DNA of 41,982 nucleotides from Alphaproteobacteria bacterium. Lineage in GTDB: Bacteria; Pseudomonadota; Alphaproteobacteria; CAAHEQ01; UBA3637. The DNA is taken from the NCBI GenBank assembly GCA_900772625.1, contig CAAHEQ010000025.1, positions 1 through 41,982 of the forward strand. The letters are read 5' to 3'. The notes under the pieces were generated by a model. It made no database searches and had not been told where the DNA came from. It saw only the letters and a program-made list of their open reading frames with translations. Positions 2,112 through 26,844 of this stretch are shown here, piece after piece. The first letter of the stretch is position 1. Each line of letters opens with the position of its first letter. The translations under genes and the position numbers were made by a program.

Positions 2112-2589
2112 GTCCGAAAACAAATCCTTTTTACACACGTTGTTGATGCCGTTGGCATTGTTTTTTGCAGGGCTAAAACATTTTTCAAGGTGGATTATCT
2201 TTTTTACTTTAATCGGTCTTGTTCTGTTTTTCTTATACGACCGATATGCGAATTCGACTTATCTAGAAGATTCGACAAGCGATTTTCAGGTCGGCTCTTT
2301 TGCGCGCCACAAAAAGTACAACAGCCCCCTAAAGCGTGGTCGAACAGTCGATTTAAAAGACGAGCTTGCCAAACATTATGGCACTCAGGTTGAAAAGGGC
2401 AAAGCCACCGCACCTGTGGTTAAAAATCGGGTGTCGTCCGAAAATGCGCTCCAAAAGCCAAAAGCAAAGCCTTTGCCAGAAGTAAAGGTCAAGGTTGAAC
2501 CTGTCGTGGATTTAAAGCCTCTTGGCGCGGATTTTGCGCCTCTTTCAAAAGGTTCGATTCAAGACGAAGTGCGATCTCGCTTGCAATAA
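2104..2589 (+). CDS. membrane protein with a Lys/Pro/Val-rich tail, unknown function
   Basis: ATG 2104 overlaps the preceding stop (ATGAGTGA). Two hydrophobic segments and the tail KPKAKPLPEVKVKVEPVVDLKP. The track ORF starts at 2053. Confidence 0.5.
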   Translation: MSESENKSFLHTLLMPLALFFAGLKHFSRWIIFFTLIGLVLFFLYDRYANSTYLEDSTSDFQVGSFARHKKYNSPLKRGRTVDLKDELAKHYGTQVEKGKATAPVVKNRVSSENALQKPKAKPLPEVKVKVEPVVDLKPLGADFAPLSKGSIQDEVRSRLQ

Positions 2590-2692
2590 AATTGCGCGTT
2601 TTTGAGGTTGTGCGGCGCATTTATGTGCCGTTTGAACCAAAGTAGATATTGTTTTTTCGCTTTATTTTTTTCATTTGTTTAATTGAGGAGAA

Positions 2693-3205
2693 ATGATGCG
2701 GGAAAAGAGACTTTATTTACTGCGCCATACGCAAGCTTGCAAAGCGTGTAAAACATGCATAGACTTTGAAACACCGCTGACGAAAAATGGGCGCAAGCAA
2801 GCTCAGCAGGTTGGTTTTTATTTAAAAAAGCACGCCTGTCACCCAGAGCTTGTCTTTTGCTCGAAGGCTAAACGCTGTATTGATACGCTGAGTATTATAA
2901 AAAAAGATATGCCTCCTGCGCCTGTTGTTTATCACCACTTTTTATATTTAGCATCAGGCTATACAGTTTTGGAAATGCTTAATTTTATTGGTGATGATAT
3001 TGACAATGTGTTAGTCGTTGGGCACAGTCAAGCCATCTGTCAATTGCCAGTATTGTTGCTGCCCGATGTGCGCCATATCGACAAGCGGTTAAACAGAGCC
3101 TATCCATGCGGTACGCTGATTTGCTTAAGCTTTCCTTTTTCAAGCCCGCATTGGCGTGACGTGTTGTGTCATCAAATGAAAATTGACGACATTTTTTATC
3201 CGTGA
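2693..3205 (+). CDS. histidine phosphatase superfamily protein, SixA-like
   Basis: 170 aa with LYLLRHTQA (RHG-like motif), PLTKNGRKQA, SKAKRCIDT and VVGHSQ, in the SixA order. GAGGAG SD precedes the start. Confidence 0.6.
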   Translation: MMREKRLYLLRHTQACKACKTCIDFETPLTKNGRKQAQQVGFYLKKHACHPELVFCSKAKRCIDTLSIIKKDMPPAPVVYHHFLYLASGYTVLEMLNFIGDDIDNVLVVGHSQAICQLPVLLLPDVRHIDKRLNRAYPCGTLICLSFPFSSPHWRDVLCHQMKIDDIFYP

Positions 3206-3269
3206 AAAAACTTGCAGTATCCCTTAAATTATGCTACAACCAAGAAAGAAAGTTGAAAAGGGGATTAAA

Positions 3270-5083
3270 ATGGCTCGGCAATCACACAAAAAATACGAAT
3301 TCGAACAGATCGTTGTTGACGTGACAGTCGCAAGTAAAATGACTGAGGCGCAAAAAAAAACAATTGAAACGCTTGTAGCCAAAGCGGTGGGCGCTAAAAC
3401 GGCGCTACTGAATATCAAATATGATGCGGGCTTGCTCGGCGGATTGCAATTGCAAGTTGGCTCGTGCTTGATTGACGCGTCTGTGCGTGCCAAGTTGTCT
3501 AAGATTGAAAATATCCTTGAAACTGCGCGGTTGAAAAAGACCACGCCCGAGGATTTTGAACAAATCCTCAAAACATGGGCAGATAATCATTTGCTTGCCC
3601 CAAAGGTGGAAAACGTGGGACGTGTGTTGTCGGTTAAAGACGGTATTGCGCGCGTGCAAGGAATGAACCGCGTGAAGGCGGGCGAGCTGATTCGCTTTAA
3701 CGATACCGTGGCGGGAATTGTTTTTACCGTGAATAAAAACTATACAGACGTTGTTTTGTTGGCCGAAGCAGGTGCACTGGATGAAGGTGACCTTGCTGTG
3801 CAGACGGGCGATGTAGTGCGCGTACCTGTGGGGATGTCGCTGATTGGGCGCGTGGTGGATGCTTTGGGCACGCCGATTGACGGGTTGGGCGATTTGAATG
3901 CGGAAATGAAAATGCCGCTGGAAGCCCCTGTTGCAGGCATTGTTGAGCGCCAGCCTGTGTGCAAGCCTTTCCCAACGGGATTAAAAGTCATTGACGCGTT
4001 GGTGCCGATTGGTTTGGGGCAACGCGAGCTTGTCGTTGGCGACCGCCAGACGGGCAAAACTTCCATTTTAATTGACGCGATTTTAAATCAAAAAGAACAT
4101 AATTTACAGGCCAAAAAGCCACAAGATAAAATCTATTGCATTTATGTTGCCATTGGGCAAAAGCAATCCACGGTGGCTGAACTCGTGCGCTTGTTGCAAG
4201 AATCGGGCGCGATGGATTATACGTGCGTTGTGAGCGCGTCTGCGTCTGATACTGCGGCTTTGCAATATGCTGCGCCGTTTACGGGCACAACAATTGCAGA
4301 GTACTTCCGCGACCGTTCGATGAATGCGGTTGTGTTTTACGATGACTTGACAAAGCACGCAAATGCGTATCGGCAAATCTCGCTTTTGCTGCGCCGACCA
4401 CCTGGCCGAGAAGCCTACCCTGGTGACATTTTTTATTTACACTCGCGCTTGCTTGAGCGTGCTGCGATGATGAGCGATGACAAGGGTGGCGGCTCACTGA
4501 CGGCAATTCCTGTGGTGGAAACGCAAGAAGGCGACCTGTCGGCCTATATTCCAACAAATGTGATTTCGATTACGGACGGGCAGATTTTCCTTGAGAACAG
4601 TTTGTTTAATCAAGGCGTACGTCCTGCCGTGAATGTCGGGCTTTCCGTCAGCCGTGTCGGATCGCAAGCGCAGCGCCCGCTGATGGCAAAAATTGCAGGC
4701 TCGATGAAGCTAGAGTTGGCGCAGTACCGAGAAATGCTTTCGTTTGCGCAAATTGCCTCGGATCTGGACTCCTCAACGCAAGAGTTGCTCCACAAAGGCG
4801 TTCGAATGACCGAAGTTCTAAAGCAACCCGTGCATAAACCGCTTGCCTTTGTCGATGAGTATTTAAGCCTTTATGCCGTCAGCAACGGTTTTTATGTGGG
4901 AATTAAGCCTGCGGACATTGCTGCCATAGAGCGAGGCTTGATTGACAAAATGCATACGCATTACCCCGACTTAATCGATGCGATTGACCGAGCGGGTAAA
5001 GAGTTGCCAGCTGCTAGCAAAAAGCAACTGGACGAGGCTATTCGTGAAGTAATTACTGAGGTTATGGCAAACGAGCAAAGAAA

Positions 5084-5087
<4 letters not shown>
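3270..5087 (+). CDS. atpA: F1 ATP synthase alpha subunit carrying an N-terminal fusion of the delta (OSCP) C-terminal domain
   Basis: 605 codons from ATG 3270 (AAGGGGA upstream; the track ORF starts at 3231, just after an in-frame TAA at 3225). The first ~88 aa match the delta C-domain (VVDVTVASKMTEAQ...LLGGLQLQVGSCLIDASVRAKLSKIENIL). From ~3540 the sequence is canonical alpha (VGRVLSVKDGIARVQGM, Walker A GDRQTGKTS). There is no stop or ATG at the junction. Confidence 0.9.
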
Positions 5088-8085
<2,998 letters not shown>

Positions 8086-8088
8086 CAC

Positions 8089-8117
8089 TTGACTTTTCTT
8101 TGACGCGTTTGTATGAT
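8089..8117 (+). promoter_or_regulatory. sigma70-like promoter for the TPR/GT41 gene
   Basis: TTGACT (8089-8094), 17-nt spacer, TATGAT (8112-8117). Confidence 0.45.
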
Positions 8118-8142
8118 GCTTTTCAAACAAAAGGAGACCACT

Positions 8143-9720
8143 ATGACAAACTTTGAACAACTGAATAAATCTGCTCAAGATTTTATCGAAAAGAAAGAAT
8201 ACACGCAAGCGGAAGTGTGCTTAATGCGGGCGTTGCAGTTAAAAAGCGATGACGCTGAAGTATGGCATAATTTGGCAGGCGTTCGGATGTGCCAAAAAAG
8301 ATTTAAGGCTGCGGCCGATTTTTTTGGGCGCCAACTCGAACTTGATCCATACGATATCCAAGCTGCGCTCGATATGATTTATGCAAAAGAATGGCACTTT
8401 ATTTGGGAAGATTTTCAACAAGATGTTCGTTCCGTTAAAGAAAAAATGGCCGAATTGGACGCTTTTTCAACGCGCTCGATGTTTATGGACTTGCCCCATA
8501 CGTTTGAAGAGCTCTATACATGGCTTTTAAAGCGTCACGCAGGCGATGCTAAATTGCAAGACATTTATGCGCAAAACTTTACATTTGACCACTCCAATCA
8601 TAAAATTGGCCCAAAAATTAAGGTGGGTTATTTTACAACTGATTTAGGGCCGTCCCCTTGCGGCAATGTGATGACGGCGTTGTTTGAAAACCACAATCAC
8701 GCACAATTTGAAATTCATTGCTTTGCGACAACGGACTTGGCAAAAGCCAGCCAAAAAGACTATGGCAAGCGATTGGTCGAACGGCAAATGAAGTGCTTTG
8801 ATTTTTATCATGATATGTCGAAAATCAATAATGAAAAAGAAATGGCACAAGCGATTTATGACGCAGGCATTGACATTTTAATCGATGTGAATGGCGTGGG
8901 CAACAAGATGTATCGCACGCTTGCGTACCGTCCAGCCCCTGTGCAGGTGGATTATTTTGGCGTTCCTTCTACAACGGGCTTGCCGTATTACGATTACGTG
9001 ATTGGTGACAAGTTTACGATGCCAGAATCGCAAAGAAAATATTTTTCGGAGAAAATCAAGGATATGCCGCTTTGCTATCATCCCGCTGATGACAAGCCCG
9101 AGTTCGGCCCTGTCTTTAGCAAAGAGGATTGCTTTTTGCCAGAGGACAAAGTGATTTACTGTTCGTTTGTATCGGCGTTCAAAATTACGGAAAAGTACTT
9201 TGATATGTGGTGCCGCATTTTAAAAGCTGTGCCCGATTCGGTGCTGTGGCTTTTATCACGCGAGGATGTGGACGAGGATAACCTGCGTCACGAGGCAATC
9301 AAGCGTGGTATTACGCCTGAGCGCATTATTTTCTTACCGTGTATGGATCGGCCATTCTTCCTGTCGGCGCTGAGAAATGCAGATTTATTCTTGGACGTGG
9401 AAATATGGCAAGCGCACTCAACGTGCTTGGAAAGCTTGTCCGCCTGCGTGCCGCTCTTGACATGTACAGGCAACAGCTGGGCATCGCGTGTGCCATCGAC
9501 TATGCTGAAGACTTTCGGTTTGCCCGAGCTTGTCTGCGCCAGCGAGGCCGAGTACGAACAAAAAGCCATTGCTTATGGTTTGGACAAAGAAAAGCTTGCT
9601 GCGTTAAAGGAAAAGACAAAAGCGCTGATGAGTCCCGAAAACCCATTGTTTAATATGAAGCAATATGCTAAGTGGTTCGAGGATAATTTAATGGAAATGC
9701 TTCACGAAAAATTGAGATAA
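8143..9720 (+). CDS. TPR-repeat protein with a GT41 (O-GlcNAc transferase/SPINDLY-like) glycosyltransferase domain
   Basis: AAGGAG precedes ATG 8143 (the track ORF starts at 8113). N-terminal TPRs (AEVWHNLAGVRMCQKRFKAAADFF), then the GT41-type core (KIKVGYFTTDLGPSPCGNVMTALFENHNHAQFEIHCFAT...VIYCSFVSAFKITE). Confidence 0.75.
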   Translation: MTNFEQLNKSAQDFIEKKEYTQAEVCLMRALQLKSDDAEVWHNLAGVRMCQKRFKAAADFFGRQLELDPYDIQAALDMIYAKEWHFIWEDFQQDVRSVKEKMAELDAFSTRSMFMDLPHTFEELYTWLLKRHAGDAKLQDIYAQNFTFDHSNHKIGPKIKVGYFTTDLGPSPCGNVMTALFENHNHAQFEIHCFATTDLAKASQKDYGKRLVERQMKCFDFYHDMSKINNEKEMAQAIYDAGIDILIDVNGVGNKMYRTLAYRPAPVQVDYFGVPSTTGLPYYDYVIGDKFTMPESQRKYFSEKIKDMPLCYHPADDKPEFGPVFSKEDCFLPEDKVIYCSFVSAFKITEKYFDMWCRILKAVPDSVLWLLSREDVDEDNLRHEAIKRGITPERIIFLPCMDRPFFLSALRNADLFLDVEIWQAHSTCLESLSACVPLLTCTGNSWASRVPSTMLKTFGLPELVCASEAEYEQKAIAYGLDKEKLAALKEKTKALMSPENPLFNMKQYAKWFEDNLMEMLHEKLR

Positions 9721-9885: not shown

Positions 9886-10293
9886 TTAGTTGTTATTGAA
9901 TGTGAATGTTGTACCAGCTGTTGTAGCACCAGAAATTGTGACCAAAGCAGATGTACGGCCAGCCAAAGCAGCTGCGATTGCATCAGATGGAACATTTGTG
10001 ACAGCAATCACGATTGGAGCTGTTGCAGATTCACGAGAGACAGCACCAGCAACACCAGATGGAGCTGTTTCGCCAGGCATCAAGTCAGCACATGTTGTAG
10101 CGGATGTTTCATCGCCCATACCACGTGTTTGAGCCAAAACTGCACAACGAGATACATAGTCCAAAATGTTGTTTGCACGGTAACGGTTCATAGCCATTGT
10201 GTAGCCAGCCAAACCACCGATAGACAAAACACCAATGATTGCCAAAACACCGAGCATTTCAATCATTGAACGACCAGATTCAATTTTTTTCAT
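9886..10293 (-). CDS. prepilin-type (class III signal peptide) pilin/pseudopilin-like protein
   Basis: Begins MKKIESG|RSMIEMLGVLAIIGVLSIGGLAGY: a short basic leader, Gly at -1, Glu at +5 and a hydrophobic helix. It has two Cys and a Ser/Thr/Ala-rich C-terminal half. AGGAA lies upstream and the gene has its own terminator. Confidence 0.75.
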   Translation of the reverse strand: MKKIESGRSMIEMLGVLAIIGVLSIGGLAGYTMAMNRYRANNILDYVSRCAVLAQTRGMGDETSATTCADLMPGETAPSGVAGAVSRESATAPIVIAVTNVPSDAIAAALAGRTSALVTISGATTAGTTFTFNNN

Positions 10294-20772: not shown

Positions 20773-21872
20773 TTTTTGTCTTTCATCATTTTAATAATTG
20801 CTTGACCCATCGCCTCATCGGCTGAAATGCTGGGTTGCGCTTGCTCTAAACACTGTGCAGCACGGCGCAAAATCTCTGGTGTCTCAATCAATTCTGTCAA
20901 GCGCTCTGCTATCGCTTCGGGCGTTGTTTGCTTTTCGATAATCAGCCAGCCGCCGCCAGAAGTGCACCAAACTTTCGCATTCGCGGTTTGGTGATCGTCC
21001 GCCGCAGTCGGCAATGGCAATAATAACGCAGGGCGTGCCAGCGCGGAAAATTCGGCCAAACTGGACGAGCCCGCCCGCGAAATGACAAGGTGAGCATTCG
21101 CAAGCAGTTCTGGAATGTTATCGAAAAACGGCGCGAGTGTTAGGGATTTAATGCCCGAGTTGCGATACTCTTCTTTGACTTTTTCCATATCCTCAGCACG
21201 CACTTGCTCGGTGACGCAAAGTTTACCTTTAATTTCGGGCGAGAGCATTACAAGGGCTTTTGGTAAAAGCGCACTTAAAGCGCGTGCTCCTTGCGAGCCG
21301 CCCATAATCAGCAAGCGAAATTCTTGCGTGTCTGTTGAATAAGGAGTTCCTTTTTTTTGCAAAATAACGGGACGCACAGGCATACCCGTTTGCACCGTTT
21401 CAATGCCCTCGGGGATTCGCTCGGTTGGTGTGAACGATGTTGCAATCAAACGCGTACGGCGCGCCAGCAAACGATTAGCTTTGCCTAAGATTGCATTTTG
21501 TTCGTGCAAGACAACAGGAATATGTAAAAACTGTGCCGCTAAAGTGGCTGGAATGGACGCATAACCGCCAAAGCCAACCACCATTTTTGGGTTAAGCTTA
21601 ATCAAAAGGCGCAATGATTGAAGAGTTCCAATAACAAGCTTGATAGCGGCTTTTGCTTTGCCAAACACGCCCTTGCCAGTCACGGACGCGGCGCACACAT
21701 AATAAACAGGCAAGCTTGCCAAAGTGCCTTTTAGTTTGTCCTTGACGCGCTTGTCAGTGACAAAAACAAGGTTATAGTTTGCATGTGCTTTCAGATAAGA
21801 GGCAACAGACTCGGCAGGAAAAACGTGTCCGCCTGTGCCACCTGTTGTTAATACGATAGTATTTTTCTTCAT
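20769..21872 (-). CDS. murG: UDP-GlcNAc:lipid I GlcNAc transferase MurG
   Basis: GGTGGHVFPA N-terminal motif; GT28 architecture. Confidence 0.9.
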   Translation of the reverse strand: MKKNTIVLTTGGTGGHVFPAESVASYLKAHANYNLVFVTDKRVKDKLKGTLASLPVYYVCAASVTGKGVFGKAKAAIKLVIGTLQSLRLLIKLNPKMVVGFGGYASIPATLAAQFLHIPVVLHEQNAILGKANRLLARRTRLIATSFTPTERIPEGIETVQTGMPVRPVILQKKGTPYSTDTQEFRLLIMGGSQGARALSALLPKALVMLSPEIKGKLCVTEQVRAEDMEKVKEEYRNSGIKSLTLAPFFDNIPELLANAHLVISRAGSSSLAEFSALARPALLLPLPTAADDHQTANAKVWCTSGGGWLIIEKQTTPEAIAERLTELIETPEILRRAAQCLEQAQPSISADEAMGQAIIKMMKDKK

Positions 21873-23005
21873 TCCAATCCTCCCTGCGTAGGGTGCCTAC
21901 GCGTCAATGATAAAATAATTCCAAAGCCCAAAGCCAGCGAAAGAAGCGATGATCCGCCATAGGAAATAAATGGCAATGTCATTCCTTTCGTTGGTACAAG
22001 GTGCAGTGTTGATGCCATATTGATAAAAGCTTGTACACCAAATTGAGTCAAAAGTCCAGCAACCGCCAGCATATTAAACAGATTTTTTTCTTTACTCATA
22101 ATATAAAAGCCGCGGCACAAAATAAAACCAAACAACGCGACAATCGCAAGGCACATCAAAAATCCATATTCTTCCGCCGCTACCGCCAAAATAAAGTCGG
22201 TGTGCGCATCTGGCAACTTGCTTTTGATGATTCCCTCGCCAGGGCCAAGTCCAAACCACCCCGCATTATGAAAGGCTTGCAAAGATGTATCGACTTGAAA
22301 CGAATCGCCGCTGTCTGGAAATAAAAAGCGTTCGATACGACTGTGTACATGCGGCATAAAAGCATACGCCGCTGTCACGCCACAAACGGCTAAGCCCGAT
22401 AATATGGCTATCCACCAAAATGAAATGCCCGCCAAAAATAACTGAGCGCCCCAAATGGCCGAGACGGTAAATGTCATCCCAAAGTCAGGTTGCAACATCA
22501 ATAACATAAAGAGCATTCCATAAATCGCTCCTGCAATTGGAATGCCGTGAAAGCCTTTGACCAATCGGCCAGAGGCAAAAATCCACGCGCACACGACCGC
22601 AAACGCGGGCTTGATGAACTCAGAAGGTTGGATTGAAAAGAACTTAAAGGAAAGCCAGCGTTTTGCTCCTTTGATTTCTGCGCCAAAAATCAACGTGCAG
22701 AAAAGCATAACTAAGAAAACTAAAAATACAACAATTGAAATGCGTCTGATGTGCTTTGGGGACAGCATGGAAATCCACAACATAAAGACAACGGACGGCG
22801 CTAAAAAAAATAATTGCTTTTTGACAAAATGAAAGCTGTCTTTGGTGTGTAACACGCGATCGGCGACCGAAGGACTTGCTGAAAACGTCAAAATAATGCC
22901 GCAAATAATTAACGCCAGAATCGCCCACAGTAAGCCTCTGTCAAGCGTGCGCGCCCAGTTGATTAAAAATGCTTTACTTTGCTCTATGTGCTTTTTAAGC
23001 GTCAT
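21869..23005 (-). CDS. ftsW: SEDS peptidoglycan polymerase FtsW
   Basis: About 10 TM segments, LPDAHTDFILAVAAEEYG and LPFISYGGSS. Confidence 0.9.
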   Translation of the reverse strand: MTLKKHIEQSKAFLINWARTLDRGLLWAILALIICGIILTFSASPSVADRVLHTKDSFHFVKKQLFFLAPSVVFMLWISMLSPKHIRRISIVVFLVFLVMLFCTLIFGAEIKGAKRWLSFKFFSIQPSEFIKPAFAVVCAWIFASGRLVKGFHGIPIAGAIYGMLFMLLMLQPDFGMTFTVSAIWGAQLFLAGISFWWIAILSGLAVCGVTAAYAFMPHVHSRIERFLFPDSGDSFQVDTSLQAFHNAGWFGLGPGEGIIKSKLPDAHTDFILAVAAEEYGFLMCLAIVALFGFILCRGFYIMSKEKNLFNMLAVAGLLTQFGVQAFINMASTLHLVPTKGMTLPFISYGGSSLLSLALGFGIILSLTRRHPTQGGLE

Positions 23006-23006
23006 T

Positions 23007-24032
23007 TTACCACACCAAATCTGCTAATCCCAGCAGTGCGCAAACAAAGGCGAACAGCCAAAAAACGCGCACGACTTTTACTTCACTCCAGCCCATTTTT
23101 TCAAAATGGTGATGAATAGGCGCCATTAAAAACACGCGCTTTTTGCGCAGTTTAAACGAGCCAACTTGAATAATATCCGAAACCGCCTCGATGACAAAAA
23201 GGCCGCCGATGATGGCCAACAAAAGCTCTTGCTTCACGCACAAAGCCATTGTCGCCAGCACGCCGCCTAATCCCAGCGCACCCACATCACCCATAAAGAT
23301 TTTGGCGGGCTTTTTGTTATAGAACAAGAACGCCATCAAAGCGCCAATCAACGCCAAGCAAACAATGCTGAGCGCGCCGACATTCGGAATATAGTTTAAG
23401 TAAAGAGATTGACTGAGCGTGATTTCACCCGAGGCATAGGCAATAAAGCCAAAGCAGGCAAAAGCTATCATCAACGGCACTGAAACGAGCCCGTCCAGTC
23501 CGTCCGTTAAGTTCACAGCATTGGTCGTGCCTGTAATGACCAGCGCACCAAAGGCTACATATGCAGCCCCCAACGGCAACAAAATGTGCCAGTAGGGGAT
23601 TTCAACTTGTACGGCCAGCTCGGCAGGCAGATGTGCGATAATCCATAAAATCGCAACTGTGCTGACCAAAAACTCAACAAACAAACGGCGTCTGCCCGAA
23701 ATGCCACCATAGGCAGATTGGTTCGTGATTTTCAAATAATCATCTTGAAAGCCAACGATGCCAAACGCCAACATCATAAACACAGCGACTTGAACAAACG
23801 CATTCGAAAGCGGTGCTGTCAGAAGCGTTGCAATCAAGCTCCATAAAATCACCATCACTCCGCCCATTGTCGGCGTGCCTTTTTTTACAAGATGCGTTTT
23901 TGGGCCGTCATCGCGGATGGGCTGGCCTTTTTTCGATATGTGATGCATCAGGCGGATAAATAACGGCATAGACGCAAAGCACCCACAAAATGCAATTAAA
24001 AACGCGCAGGTGTATTCATTGATAAAAGTCAT
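23007..24032 (-). CDS. mraY: phospho-N-acetylmuramoyl-pentapeptide transferase MraY
   Basis: GTPTMGG, QDDYLK, NAVNLTDGLDGL and PIHHHFE. Confidence 0.95.
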   Translation of the reverse strand: MTFINEYTCAFLIAFCGCFASMPLFIRLMHHISKKGQPIRDDGPKTHLVKKGTPTMGGVMVILWSLIATLLTAPLSNAFVQVAVFMMLAFGIVGFQDDYLKITNQSAYGGISGRRRLFVEFLVSTVAILWIIAHLPAELAVQVEIPYWHILLPLGAAYVAFGALVITGTTNAVNLTDGLDGLVSVPLMIAFACFGFIAYASGEITLSQSLYLNYIPNVGALSIVCLALIGALMAFLFYNKKPAKIFMGDVGALGLGGVLATMALCVKQELLLAIIGGLFVIEAVSDIIQVGSFKLRKKRVFLMAPIHHHFEKMGWSEVKVVRVFWLFAFVCALLGLADLVW

Positions 24033-24033
24033 T

Positions 24034-26844
24034 TTATTGCCTCATTAACTTTTCCATAATTATGTTCATTTTCATACTGTTCGAGCCTTTAATCAGCACG
24101 ACATCGCCGTCTTCAAGACGTGATTGGAGTGTGTTGATAACCTCGGGCGCGCTTTCAAAAAAGCCGCCTTTGATGGTGTCAGGCAAAATGTCGTACAAAG
24201 GCTTTGTCTCTGCCCCCACGCAAAAGACTAGGTCTATGTGGTTGCGAGCAATGGCATCATTCAAGCCTTGATGCAATACGGCGGACTTTTCGCCCAGCTC
24301 ACGCATTTCACCGATGACAGCCACTTTGCGCCCGTGGTTTGCTCCCAACACATTCAAGGACGCCGTCATCGACGACGGATTAGCATTATAGCAATCATCA
24401 ATAAAAGTAATGCTTTTGCCCATAACCGAGCCTTTGACGAGCGCACCGCGACCTTTGAGCGGTTTCATTTGCGCCAAGTTTTCAATGGCTTTGTCTACAT
24501 CGGCGTTCAGCGACAACACAACTCCCAGCACGCCTAGCGCATTTTGAATAAAGTGCAAGCCTGCCATTTGAAGTTTCAGCTCTTTTTCCTTGCCATTGAC
24601 GTGGATGATTGCACGCGAACCTGCCTCGTCTATGTGATAGTTGATCAGGCGCACGGTGCTGCCCTCTGCCGAGCCGAATGAGTAAATATGACTGAGCCCG
24701 TTTTCGGTGGCTTTTTGTTTTAAAAAGTCGAACATTGCATTGTCTTTGTTCAAAAATACTGCGCCGTTTTTGTTCATATGCGTAAAGATTTCGGCTTTGG
24801 CGGCGGCAATATCTTCAATGGTTTTAAAAAACTCGTGATGCGCCGAACCGACCATGGTAATCAAGGCAACATCAGGTTTGACAAGGTAAGATAAATACTC
24901 CATTTCGCCCGTGTGATTCATTCCCATTTCGATAATCGCCCAATTGGACAGTCGAGGCAATCTTGCCAAAGTCAACGGCACGCCCCATTGGTTGTTCAGG
25001 TTGCCCTTTGTTGCGTGCACAGTGCCTTGACCTTGCAACGCCAACGCCAACATTTCTTTTGAGGTTGTTTTGCCCGAGCTGCCTGTAATACCGATTTTCA
25101 TCGCGCGTGAGTTTTGCGCTGCATAGCGCGCCATATCTTCCAACGCTTCATCGGTGTTGACAACAAAAAAGAGCTTTTCTGTTTGCGTGATGTTTTCAAC
25201 ATCTTGGCTGACAATCGCGGCAACAGCGCCTTTTTTAAGCGCTTCTTTGACATAGTTGTGACCGTCCACTTTTTCGCCTTTCAAAGCGATGAAAATGTCA
25301 CCAGGTTGCAGCGTTCTGGTATCAATCGAAACGCCATAGGCAACGAATGTTTTATAACTTTTGCCACCTGTGGCGTGCTTGAGCTCATCACTTGTCCACA
25401 GCGGTTTTTCTTCTTGACTACGCAAGGCGAGTTGTGCTTGAATCTTGTCATTAAACGGGTGCATAAAGCCGTTAATCAGCTGACCTTCTTCGTGCCCTTT
25501 TCCTGCGATGAGCAGCGTATCATTGGCCTGAAGCTTATGGATAGCGTGATAAATGGCTTTGGCTCTGTCACCAATCGGGCGCGCGTTGGGGCAGCCTTTC
25601 ATAATCTGAGCGCGAATCTCGCCCGCATTTTCAAAACGTGGATTGTCATCAGTGACAACAACATAATCGGCGATACGTTCAGCAATTTGTCCCATAATCG
25701 GACGCTTGCCTGTGTCGCGATTGCCGCCACAACCAAAGACGACCAGCAGCCTGCCTTTCGTTTGCGCGCGCAGTGAGTTGAGTGCGTTTTCAAGCCCGTC
25801 TGGCGTGTGCGCATAGTCCACAAAAATCGGTGCACCTGCTTTTGTTTTGGCGACCAATTCCATCCGTCCTGAGGGGCTTTTTAAGCTCTTCAGCGTTTTT
25901 AAAATGTCCTCCACATCAAAGCCACAGCCAATCACTAATCCGATAGCGGTTAAAATGTTCATTCCTTGGAAGTTGCCCGCCACAGGAATGTCAACGTGAT
26001 AATCTTTGCCAAAGATTTGCAAATCAAGCGTTTGCGATGTTTCTTTTAATTCTTGCTTAATCAAGCGAATGTCTTGCCCTTTGTAGCCATAGGAAATGAC
26101 ACGCAGTCCTTTTTTGAGGCAGGCATCTTTAATGAGCTCGAACTCCTCAATGTCGGCATTTAAAACGGCCACTTCTTTTGTCAGCTCTGTAAAAAGCTTT
26201 AACTTGGCATTTAAGTAATTTTCCATCGTGCCGTGATAGTCCAAATGATCGCGCGTTAAGTTCGTAAAAGCGCTGGCTTTAAATTCAAGGCCGCTTAAGC
26301 GATGTTGCGCAAGCCCGTGACTGGAAGCTTCCAGCGCTGCATACTCAACGCCATTTTCGGCCAATGTTTCAAGGTCTTGATTGAGCGTTAAGCTGTCTGA
26401 AGTTGTCATACCGCCGTATGAGGTAAACTTGCCCGATTGAACCCCGAGCGTGCCGAGTGTGGCTGCGCTTTTGCCGAGGGCTTCCAAAATCTCGCGCACA
26501 AAAAAGACGGTTGAGGTTTTGCCGTTTGTGCCCGTGACAGCGACAAGTGTTTGGGGCTTTTTATTATAATAGTGCGCGCAAATCAAAGCAAAAGCTTTGC
26601 GCACGTCTTGTGTTTCAAATGTGGGAACATCGGCATTGATTGTATGATCTAAAAGCACGGCAACGGCGCCATTTTTGATTGCGACAGGAATGTAATCTTC
26701 ACCGTTTTCCTTGACGCCTTTGAGCGCAACAAACAAATATCCTTTTTTGACTTTGCGCGAATCGCACGCGATGCCTGTAATTTCAATGTTGGCGTCAAAT
26801 GGCGTATCAACTTGTCCTGCTTTTAATAATTCCGATAAAATCAT
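24034..26844 (-). CDS. murE/murF: fused MurE (meso-DAP-adding) / MurF (D-Ala-D-Ala-adding) Mur ligase, 936 aa
   Basis: The N-half is MurE (VTGTNGKTST, DYAHTPD, VTDDNPRFE, AGKGHE). After the linker ...QLALRSQEEKPLWTSDELK (~25402-25425) comes a complete MurF (GITGSSGKTTSKEM, DCYNANPSSM). Uninterrupted single frame. Confidence 0.9.
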   Translation of the reverse strand: MILSELLKAGQVDTPFDANIEITGIACDSRKVKKGYLFVALKGVKENGEDYIPVAIKNGAVAVLLDHTINADVPTFETQDVRKAFALICAHYYNKKPQTLVAVTGTNGKTSTVFFVREILEALGKSAATLGTLGVQSGKFTSYGGMTTSDSLTLNQDLETLAENGVEYAALEASSHGLAQHRLSGLEFKASAFTNLTRDHLDYHGTMENYLNAKLKLFTELTKEVAVLNADIEEFELIKDACLKKGLRVISYGYKGQDIRLIKQELKETSQTLDLQIFGKDYHVDIPVAGNFQGMNILTAIGLVIGCGFDVEDILKTLKSLKSPSGRMELVAKTKAGAPIFVDYAHTPDGLENALNSLRAQTKGRLLVVFGCGGNRDTGKRPIMGQIAERIADYVVVTDDNPRFENAGEIRAQIMKGCPNARPIGDRAKAIYHAIHKLQANDTLLIAGKGHEEGQLINGFMHPFNDKIQAQLALRSQEEKPLWTSDELKHATGGKSYKTFVAYGVSIDTRTLQPGDIFIALKGEKVDGHNYVKEALKKGAVAAIVSQDVENITQTEKLFFVVNTDEALEDMARYAAQNSRAMKIGITGSSGKTTSKEMLALALQGQGTVHATKGNLNNQWGVPLTLARLPRLSNWAIIEMGMNHTGEMEYLSYLVKPDVALITMVGSAHHEFFKTIEDIAAAKAEIFTHMNKNGAVFLNKDNAMFDFLKQKATENGLSHIYSFGSAEGSTVRLINYHIDEAGSRAIIHVNGKEKELKLQMAGLHFIQNALGVLGVVLSLNADVDKAIENLAQMKPLKGRGALVKGSVMGKSITFIDDCYNANPSSMTASLNVLGANHGRKVAVIGEMRELGEKSAVLHQGLNDAIARNHIDLVFCVGAETKPLYDILPDTIKGGFFESAPEVINTLQSRLEDGDVVLIKGSNSMKMNIIMEKLMRQ

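Follow-up and report, generated by a model that had tools for sequence, protein, structure and literature searches.

A delta C-terminal domain fused to ATP synthase alpha in a gut alphaproteobacterial clade: a natural counterpart of an engineered multi-stalk design

Introduction

How is the head of an ATP synthase tied to its peripheral stalk when the operon encodes no separate delta subunit, and what would follow for the enzyme if the stalk-binding half of delta were part of every alpha chain? The question is raised by a 42-kb stretch of alphaproteobacterial DNA (contig CAAHEQ010000025.1; the whole stretch is called the window here) that carries an F1 operon on its plus strand, in which a preliminary description read the gene at 3270-5087 (+) as delta's C-terminal domain fused in frame to alpha, with no delta N-terminal domain encoded. 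In canonical enzymes, the delta C-domain docks the C-termini of the b-subunit stalk.

The ion/ATP ratio was long thought to be set by c-ring size only, but two enzymes described in 2025 make the number of stalks and a-subunits a second gear (PMC12229609, PMC12002316). In the first, Ueno et al. (Nat Commun 2025;16:5410; PMC12229609; PDB 9jc1) deleted residues 2-104 of the Bacillus PS3 delta and attached what follows, residues 105-178, to the alpha N-terminus, on the rationale that the delta N-domain, seated on the pseudo-three-fold axis, restricts the enzyme to one peripheral stalk. By cryo-electron microscopy (cryo-EM), this engineered enzyme holds as many as three b2 stalks, every one of them with an a-subunit; relative to gamma, it carries ~2.2-fold more of the a-subunit and 1.8-fold more of the b-subunit, has an H+/ATP of 5.8 against 3.0, and makes ATP at half the proton-motive force (PMC12229609). 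The second is the natural F1Fo of Chloroflexus aurantiacus (Zhang et al., PNAS 2025, PMC12002316; PDB 9itj), with the composition alpha3beta3 gamma epsilon delta2 a2 b4 c10, in which separate deltas dimerise atop F1 through a shortened four-helix N-domain and two stalks and two a-subunits are present. Ueno et al. additionally point to natural deltaΔN-alpha fusions in Acidaminococcus fermentans (D2RLW6) and in the entries G4Q3K6 and A0A1I2C5T3 (their Discussion and Suppl. Fig. 9), and predict from the Acidaminococcus fusion that natural multi-stalk enzymes exist, awaiting verification (PMC12229609). Our literature search found no later paper on a natural multi-stalk fusion. The system of the window is not a new kind; it is a new lineage of the kind first pointed out in 2025.

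Results

A delta C-terminal domain in frame with a complete alpha

The gene is one open reading frame (ORF) of 605 aa plus stop, which by the ORF list has no stop between 3270 and 5084. Its N-terminal part belongs to delta: Pfam OSCP (PF00213) matches residues 12-82 with profile positions 101-171 of 172 (E 6.1e-14; 52.9 bits, cut-off 22.3), and the closest PDB match of this part is Paracoccus delta, 5dn6_H residues 115-185 (E 5.6e-9). The remainder is alpha, with residues 93-596 covering positions 4-499 of the 503 in the NCBIfam atpA model TIGR00962 (665.6 bits, equivalog cut-off 484.45) and with the Pfam domains ATP-synt_ab_N at 113-180, ATP-synt_ab at 237-461 and ATP-synt_ab_C at 468-593. 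These matches lie well outside chance. A delta C-domain thus stands ahead of a complete alpha in a single reading frame, as first described, and the concern that the N-terminal residues might not be delta-like is contradicted by the PF00213 match.

The other half of delta is missing from both the polypeptide and the operon. OSCP profile positions 1-100 have no Pfam match anywhere in the fusion protein; the delta model TIGR01145 stays below its cut-off (48 against 57.5 bits) and aligns over model positions 101-172 only, and all of the 12 other delta-containing NCBIfam models likewise fall under cut-off and match the delta C-terminal part only. Judged by TIGR01145 and PF00213, then, the protein holds no full-length two-domain delta, only the C-terminal 71 positions passing at domain level. 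When full-length deltas of E. coli and of a Bacteroidetes metagenome-assembled genome (MAG) were run by tblastn against the window and the relatives' loci L001-L006, only delta residues ~108-178 matched. Across the 42-kb window and 14 loci of relatives, tblastn found no delta N-domain, and in 7 further loci no OSCP gene besides the fusion was among the Pfam-labelled gene calls.

Along the chain, a basic tail of variable length and sequence comes first (residues 1-10; 3270-3299), predicted to be disordered, with a gap fraction of 0.36 over this stretch among 47 members of the clade. The delta/OSCP C-terminal domain occupies residues 11-85 (3300-3524), followed by a junction, residues 86-112 (3525-3605), that takes in the old delta C-terminus, the old alpha start (Thr91) and the alpha N-terminal helix. 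The canonical alpha body, from beta-barrel through nucleotide-binding domain to C-terminal helical domain, fills residues 113-605 (3606-5084).

An AlphaFold2 model was built from an alignment of the 47 clade members and reaches a mean predicted local distance difference test score (pLDDT) of 82. Residues 1-7 lie below 50, while residues 11-85 are modelled at 85-89 as four strands and two helices, the pattern of the delta-C fold described for the Chloroflexus delta (PMC12002316). After a dip to 71 at residues 81-90, the model goes on with a helix at 93-105 and, from 113, the barrel. A Foldseek search of this model against the PDB ranks the engineered PS3 chains 9jc1_K and 9jc1_I first and second, over 575 columns (TMq 0.78), while ordinary alphas align over ~480-510 columns only. 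The sequences are collinear as well, window residues 21-581 running against 11-561 of 9jc1_I; and when the first 157 aa alone are the query, 9jc1_I is the sole PDB sequence found at E<=1e-9, with 21-156 against 11-146 and no net indel. The window protein is therefore collinear with the engineered fused chain, as well as structurally like it so far as the prediction goes, and the design of the polypeptide and its equivalence to that chain are established by these matches. Both have alpha headed by delta from about residue 105 to its end, and both lack the delta N-domain. The PS3 construct is man-made on a Firmicutes backbone and works with a b2 homodimer; a short linker was added to it and its epsilon was truncated (PMC12229609); the window protein is natural, alphaproteobacterial and ~47% identical, and is accompanied by a gamma with two insertions and by no adjacent Fo genes.

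A full-length delta encoded elsewhere could in principle cap this F1, leaving the delta C-domain on alpha redundant or regulatory, or the operon could be a second, specialised F1. The DNA in view, 42 kb of this genome and ~20 kb per relative, leaves room for such an arrangement, which we nevertheless regard as very improbable. The operon is the canonical alphaproteobacterial F1 operon minus the delta N-domain, with the remnant at the atpH position, and its alpha, besides passing the atpA equivalog cut-off, fails the NCBIfam alternate-F1F0 alpha model (538.8 bits against a cut-off of 750.5). By our own reasoning, the three alpha N-helices would need to accommodate an axial delta N-domain as well as three tethered delta C-domains; moreover, the delta N-domain is argued to be the very element that limits stalks to one (PMC12229609).

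Upstream boundary and start codon

Upstream of the fusion lies a SixA-like histidine phosphatase gene (2693-3205, +; Pfam His_Phos_1, E 8.3e-10) that ends in a TGA at 3203-3205, and the 64-nt intergenic spacer between the two (3206-3269) holds an in-frame TAA at 3225-3227 and a Shine-Dalgarno-like (SD-like) AAAAGGGG at 3256-3263, so that the upstream layout is as it had been claimed. This spacer is too small for a delta N-domain between the SixA-like gene and the ATG at 3270. The duplex with the anti-SD sequence is predicted at -7.8 kcal/mol for this ATG and at +0.7 for an alternative ATG at 3231, and the likely start codon is the ATG at 3270, behind AAAAGGGG. The SixA-like gene is a conserved upstream neighbour, sitting where atpH would normally begin. 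A promoter and terminator scan of 2500-8400 gave hits at chance level and nothing usable.

Conservation, distribution and origin

The same fusion recurs widely. A search of 5.8 billion proteins, with assemblies drawn from NCBI, ENA, JGI and Logan, returned ~60 clusters of 591-619-aa proteins, all with OSCP and alpha domains and at 48-71% identity, and a scan of a genome collection for loci was run with a 6-sequence alignment. The relatives' loci were recovered from gut MAGs, human and other, that bear only the title 'uncultured Alphaproteobacteria bacterium'. In a further profile search of 1.84 billion representatives, fusions cluster at 50% identity with ordinary alphas; the matches listed are mostly N-terminal fragments and ordinary deltas, and full-length fusions are not enumerated by it.

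Gene order is shared along with the fusion. A YgjP-like peptidase gene, small ORFs, a His_Phos_1 gene, the fusion, a long gamma, beta and epsilon follow one another in members as far apart as the most distant subclade: the upstream YgjP-like gene and the fusion-gamma-beta-epsilon run are present in L015 and in L017/L018, and thus in both deep subclades, and the short contig L019 keeps the run as well. Directly upstream of the fusion, L017, L018 and L021 carry a His_Phos_1 gene of 167-172 aa, and L001 and L019 an ORF of comparable size. The alignment to relatives that the preliminary description had proposed therefore yields the same fusion, in local synteny, in independent assemblies.

These relatives also settle whether the fusion could be an assembly or sequencing artefact or a pseudogene, that is, a truncated atpH joined to atpA by a deletion or by a frameshift in an A9 tract. 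The sequence is MAG-derived, and the A9 homopolymer does lie inside the delta part, at 3352-3360, where it is read in frame as Q-K-K. Yet the N-termini of relatives align with the window across the junction almost gap-free, and without any gap at the A9 tract; delta homology continues in frame on both sides of it; and among the 47 members the delta motif keeps G58 and D69 without exception and S71 with few exceptions or none. Dozens of contigs, assembled independently in different studies, carry the same gap-free fusion at identities down to 48%; the suspected read error falls away and, on this comparison of sequences, we take an artefact or pseudogene to be excluded.

A neighbour-joining (NJ) tree built on the alpha body recovers the fusions of this type as a single clade in 199/200 bootstraps; in 180/200 they fall together with canonical alphaproteobacterial alphas, those of Holosporaceae among them. 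The best sequence matches for both parts of the window protein likewise come from canonical alphaproteobacterial atpH and atpA (Paracoccus denitrificans 5dn6; the Holosporaceae MAG loci L007 and L010), and L007 and L010 share the operon order (delta)-alpha-gamma with the window. They differ from it in having a separate 188-aa delta with its N-domain, an alpha of ~510-522 aa and a gamma of ~290 aa. G+C content at the operon (~44-51%) is similar to that in other parts of the window (42-48%), giving no sign of recent transfer.

The distance between the delta motif and the barrel offers a further clue. Among the 47 members, mean pairwise identity falls to 18% in the linker and alpha N-helix, against 36% in the delta C-domain and 75% in the nucleotide-binding domain; even so, the distance from D69 to G117 is 49 residues in 46/47 members, and a spacing so fixed in a linker so poorly conserved argues for structural constraint. 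When the delta C-terminus of the canonical Holosporaceae pair in L010 is joined to its alpha N-terminus, 50 residues are counted. The conserved spacing is thus close to the length given by simple concatenation, from which we infer that the N-domain of delta was lost from an alphaproteobacterial atpH-atpA pair, whose delta stop and alpha start were merged. By these sequence comparisons, the fusion is real, old, under structural constraint and of single origin on an alphaproteobacterial backbone.

The Acidaminococcus-type fusions, which belong to another phylum, are likewise natural delta C-domain-alpha genes without a delta N-domain. Their origin appears to be separate: for the Acidaminococcaceae-type family in our search (P0187, P0314) the nearest canonical alphas are those of Negativicutes and Firmicutes, while the window clade sits among alphaproteobacterial alphas. 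As compared through the P0187/P0314 family, and not through the D2RLW6 sequence itself, the window clade apparently arose independently of the Acidaminococcus/Firmicutes case.

Several other candidates do not extend the distribution. L009, which had suggested the fusion in Bacteroidetes/Saccharibacteria, is rejected, as it has separate, ordinary atpH and atpA genes. In L013 and L014 the fusion is not supported either; a full-length delta aligns just before the alpha match, which points to separate atpH and atpA genes as in L009. P0070 (684 aa), P0081 and P0087 (702 aa) run a full two-domain delta into alpha and group with canonical alphaproteobacterial alphas; given this place in the tree and the Met at their junction, we rejected them as evolutionary intermediates, and they are probably read-through or gene-calling artefacts. 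P0061 (650 aa, partial), another full delta running into alpha and grouping with canonical alphaproteobacterial alphas, has no junction Met and might be a genuine full delta-alpha fusion.

No conserved internal start for a plain alpha

An alternative in which the delta C-domain is not carried by all three alphas would have two alpha species made from this gene, by internal initiation or by proteolysis, to give one fused and two plain alphas and a delta-C:alpha ratio of 1:3. Some features of the window would suit it. The AAGGTGG-N5-GTG at 3603-3617, proposed earlier as an internal start, is indeed present and in frame, and the GTG at 3615-3617 has an anti-SD duplex energy of -7.2 kcal/mol; the ancestral alpha-start Met is kept in 11/47 members; and the linker is poorly conserved, with the dip in pLDDT to 71 at residues 81-90.

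In-frame ATG, GTG and TTG codons were listed with their anti-SD duplex energies in nine loci, including the window. The annotated start of the fusion has a strong SD in 9/9 (-5.1 to -7.9 kcal/mol), whereas a start codon at the position of the window's GTG is absent in 8/8 other loci, which leaves the GTG with its SD unique to the window. The residue there is Ile in many clade members, and an Ile codon is not a normal start codon. An alpha begun at this position, V116, would be without the entire N-terminal helix. At the ancestral alpha-start column, the 47 members have Leu in 19 and Met in 11, the others having Ile, Lys, Val or Thr, and where the Met is kept and was scored the SD is weak (+0.3 and -2.1 kcal/mol). 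With no conserved internal start codon or SD near the junction in the nine loci, we rejected internal initiation as a conserved feature, and this escape from three delta C-domains per F1 does not hold for the clade; two alpha species have scarcely more to recommend them than a second delta elsewhere. Every alpha chain is translated with an N-terminal delta C-domain, at a fixed spacing of 49 residues before the beta-barrel.

The rest of the operon

Downstream, atpG (gamma, 355 aa; 5084-6151, +) is matched by Pfam ATP-synt over residues 4-353, profile positions 2-282, and is followed by atpD (beta, 498 aa; 6156-7652, +; ATP-synt_ab, E 3.6e-71) and atpC (epsilon, 146 aa; 7645-8085, +; ATP-synt_DE_N, E 1.7e-15). 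Gamma is long throughout the clade: it measures 355-363 aa in 7/7 fusion-clade members (the window, L001, L015, L017, L019, L020 and L021), against 290-294 aa in Holosporaceae and Bacteroidetes. Two insertions are conserved in all seven, one of ~15 aa after the N-terminal helix and another of ~54 aa with the motifs W.FL, Y..[RK]D..G and YDY. The position of the second insertion is one that we take to be the site of the regulatory insert in chloroplast and cyanobacterial gamma. In none of the fusion-clade loci examined do Fo genes adjoin the F1 operon.

Discussion

Here we find, in a clade of gut Alphaproteobacteria, a natural gene with the design of a chain engineered in 2025. By analogy with that precedent, the alpha3beta3 head would be without a delta N-domain plug on its three-fold axis and would offer three equivalent docking sites for b-type stalks, each formed by a delta C-domain and an alpha N-helix. 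With each alpha carrying its own docking module and the axis empty, more than one b-type stalk could be recruited, up to three, each bringing an a-subunit. Each c-subunit would then translocate an ion at every a-subunit per turn, so that the ion/ATP ratio would go up about two- to three-fold and ATP synthesis would need a lower membrane potential; perhaps such a high-ratio enzyme would benefit an anaerobe of the gut that lives on small ion gradients, although this is speculative. The preliminary description had suggested that a covalent link may replace N-domain docking and put the delta C-domain on every alpha, and the engineered enzyme, which assembled and worked (PMC12229609), indicates that it can. 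What had appeared there as a problem, three delta C-domains per F1, is in that precedent the point of the design, which allows up to three stalks and a-subunits (PMC12229609). Taken as a whole, the explanation that we favour is that the gene is a natural deltaΔN-alpha fusion, providing the alpha (and delta) of the organism's housekeeping F1 operon, and that the product is probably a multi-stalk enzyme with a high ion/ATP ratio; we judge its chances to be a little better than even.

Several points weigh against this explanation. Alphaproteobacteria use a b/b' heterodimer, and the engineered case used a b2 homodimer. The multi-stalk state in this organism is argued by analogy, and the engineered enzyme itself has ~two stalks on average, with single-stalk particles among its cryo-EM classes (PMC12229609). 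Genes for the Fo subunits (a, c, b/b') were found neither by tblastn in the window and 14 loci nor among the Pfam gene calls of the 7 further loci. The absence of delta is local, applying to the 42-kb window and ~20 kb around the relatives' genes. Furthermore, sequence places the clade no more closely than as gut MAGs of 'uncultured Alphaproteobacteria bacterium', in taxon as in energy metabolism. For the gut order Rs-D84, one paper reports that a respiratory chain is missing and that some genomes have F0F1 together with an H+-pyrophosphatase; this would be in keeping with an enzyme adapted to small gradients, but the window is not assignable to Rs-D84 or RF32.

The main rival is a single-stalk enzyme with a covalent tether, in which one of the three delta C-domains would bind the sole b/b' stalk and its a-subunit, the other two would be idle, and the ion/ATP ratio would be ordinary. 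This was the minimal reading of the preliminary description and it fits every sequence fact. The presence of single-stalk classes and an average of ~two in the engineered enzyme means that occupancy is not automatically three (PMC12229609), and the assembly of Fo or the geometry of a b/b' heterodimer could limit the number of stalks. In contrast, removal of the delta N-domain and fusion of the delta C-domain alone sufficed to recruit extra stalks and a-subunits in the engineered enzyme (PMC12229609). It is also hard to see why selection would have fixed the fusion, and the loss of the delta N-domain, in an order-level clade had they made no difference, and the 49-residue spacing is strict in a gene that encodes all three alpha copies. 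On balance we consider the single-stalk tether unlikely, though the most serious of the rivals.

Comparison with other departures from the canonical delta helps to place the multi-stalk proposal. As in Chloroflexus, a natural F-type enzyme would here gain stalks and a-subunits through changes to delta, each delta C-domain tying one b stalk to the head; the Chloroflexus enzyme does so with a separate, dimerising delta and two stalks, whereas the window has no N-domain, its C-domain on alpha and three potential sites. Indeed, no delta N-domain of any length precedes the C-domain here, only ~10 disordered residues. In the mycobacterial b-delta fusion, delta retains its N-domain and is present in one copy, and there is a single stalk. 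That protein (PDB 7jg5 chain d, 445 aa) is also a covalent delta fusion, whose delta C-domain matches window residues 13-79, but it joins delta to b and not to alpha; the window protein has just 10 residues before its delta C-domain, and tblastn turned up nothing b-like at the locus.

A fusion fixed in a large and diverse gut alphaproteobacterial clade offers a second, much broader natural test bed for stalk number as a gear. Stated at its fullest, the favoured explanation would mean that an ancient, roughly order-level gut clade runs a natural three-stalk (deltaC-alpha)3 beta3 enzyme with up to three b/b' stalks and a-subunits and an ion/ATP ratio two to three times the canonical one, evolved independently of Acidaminococcaceae and with the gamma insertions alongside. 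We put this forward tentatively, and our own judgement leans against it in this complete form. Were it true, then together with the tandem delta-C and b-deltaC-alpha forms described below, stalk number and gear ratio would have been tuned repeatedly through the copy number of one 75-residue module. The fusion further suggests a repeated evolution of high-ratio ATP synthases in low-energy anaerobes of the gut. There is a practical side for annotation, too: genomes of this clade seem to be without atpH, and metabolic reconstructions may wrongly call their ATP synthase incomplete.

Other rearrangements and neighbouring genes

Beyond the fusion clade, the searches brought up further rearrangements of the delta C-domain. 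A normal delta N-domain is followed by three tandem C-domains in P0124 (364 aa; NCBI record 'MULTISPECIES: F0F1 ATP synthase subunit delta [Clostridium]'), P0129 (412 aa) and P0127 (360 aa), and by two in P0128 (299 aa). Such tandem delta C-domains may be another natural route to several stalk-docking modules per F1. Two tandem delta C-domains with no N-domain make up P0139, P0146 and P0157 (~141-146 aa), the first of which is annotated as delta in a Pseudomonadales MAG. In P0288 (747 aa), a b-subunit with transmembrane helix and coiled coil, a delta C-domain and alpha form one chain, and P0192 (747 aa) is listed with it among the delta-C rearrangements. P0165 (676 aa) has a short non-canonical N-terminal part, then delta-C, then a non-alphaproteobacterial alpha, while P0167 is an N-terminal fragment in which delta-C runs into alpha with the Met kept at the junction. 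In the NJ tree, from which P0167 is absent, P0165 and P0288 fall outside the window's clade.

Some neighbouring genes are also worth recording. In the distant fusion subclade, a conserved minus-strand cluster of phage-like genes directly follows the atp operon, downstream of epsilon, in several MAGs (L015 14968-21818; L017/L018 14914-21845; L019 5384-7935). It includes a T7-like capsid, a 'nozzle', a cell-wall hydrolase and a terminase-like gene, and might represent a prophage, or an element resembling a gene-transfer agent, at a fixed position. In the window, the atp operon is directly followed by a 535-aa ORF (8113-9720, +) that combines TPR repeats with a family-41 glycosyltransferase and resembles O-GlcNAc transferase. 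A 135-aa ORF (9886-10293, -) has a type IV pilin-like N-terminus, MKKIESGRSMIEMLGVLAIIGVLSIGG, and no Pfam match at E<=1e-4. Further along, the dcw cluster holds a 936-aa ORF (24034-26844, -) with two Mur-ligase domain sets, which looks like a MurE-MurF fusion and would be a second gene fusion in the window. The gene murD usually sits between mraY and ftsW; here none lies between mraY (23007-24032) and ftsW (21869-23005).

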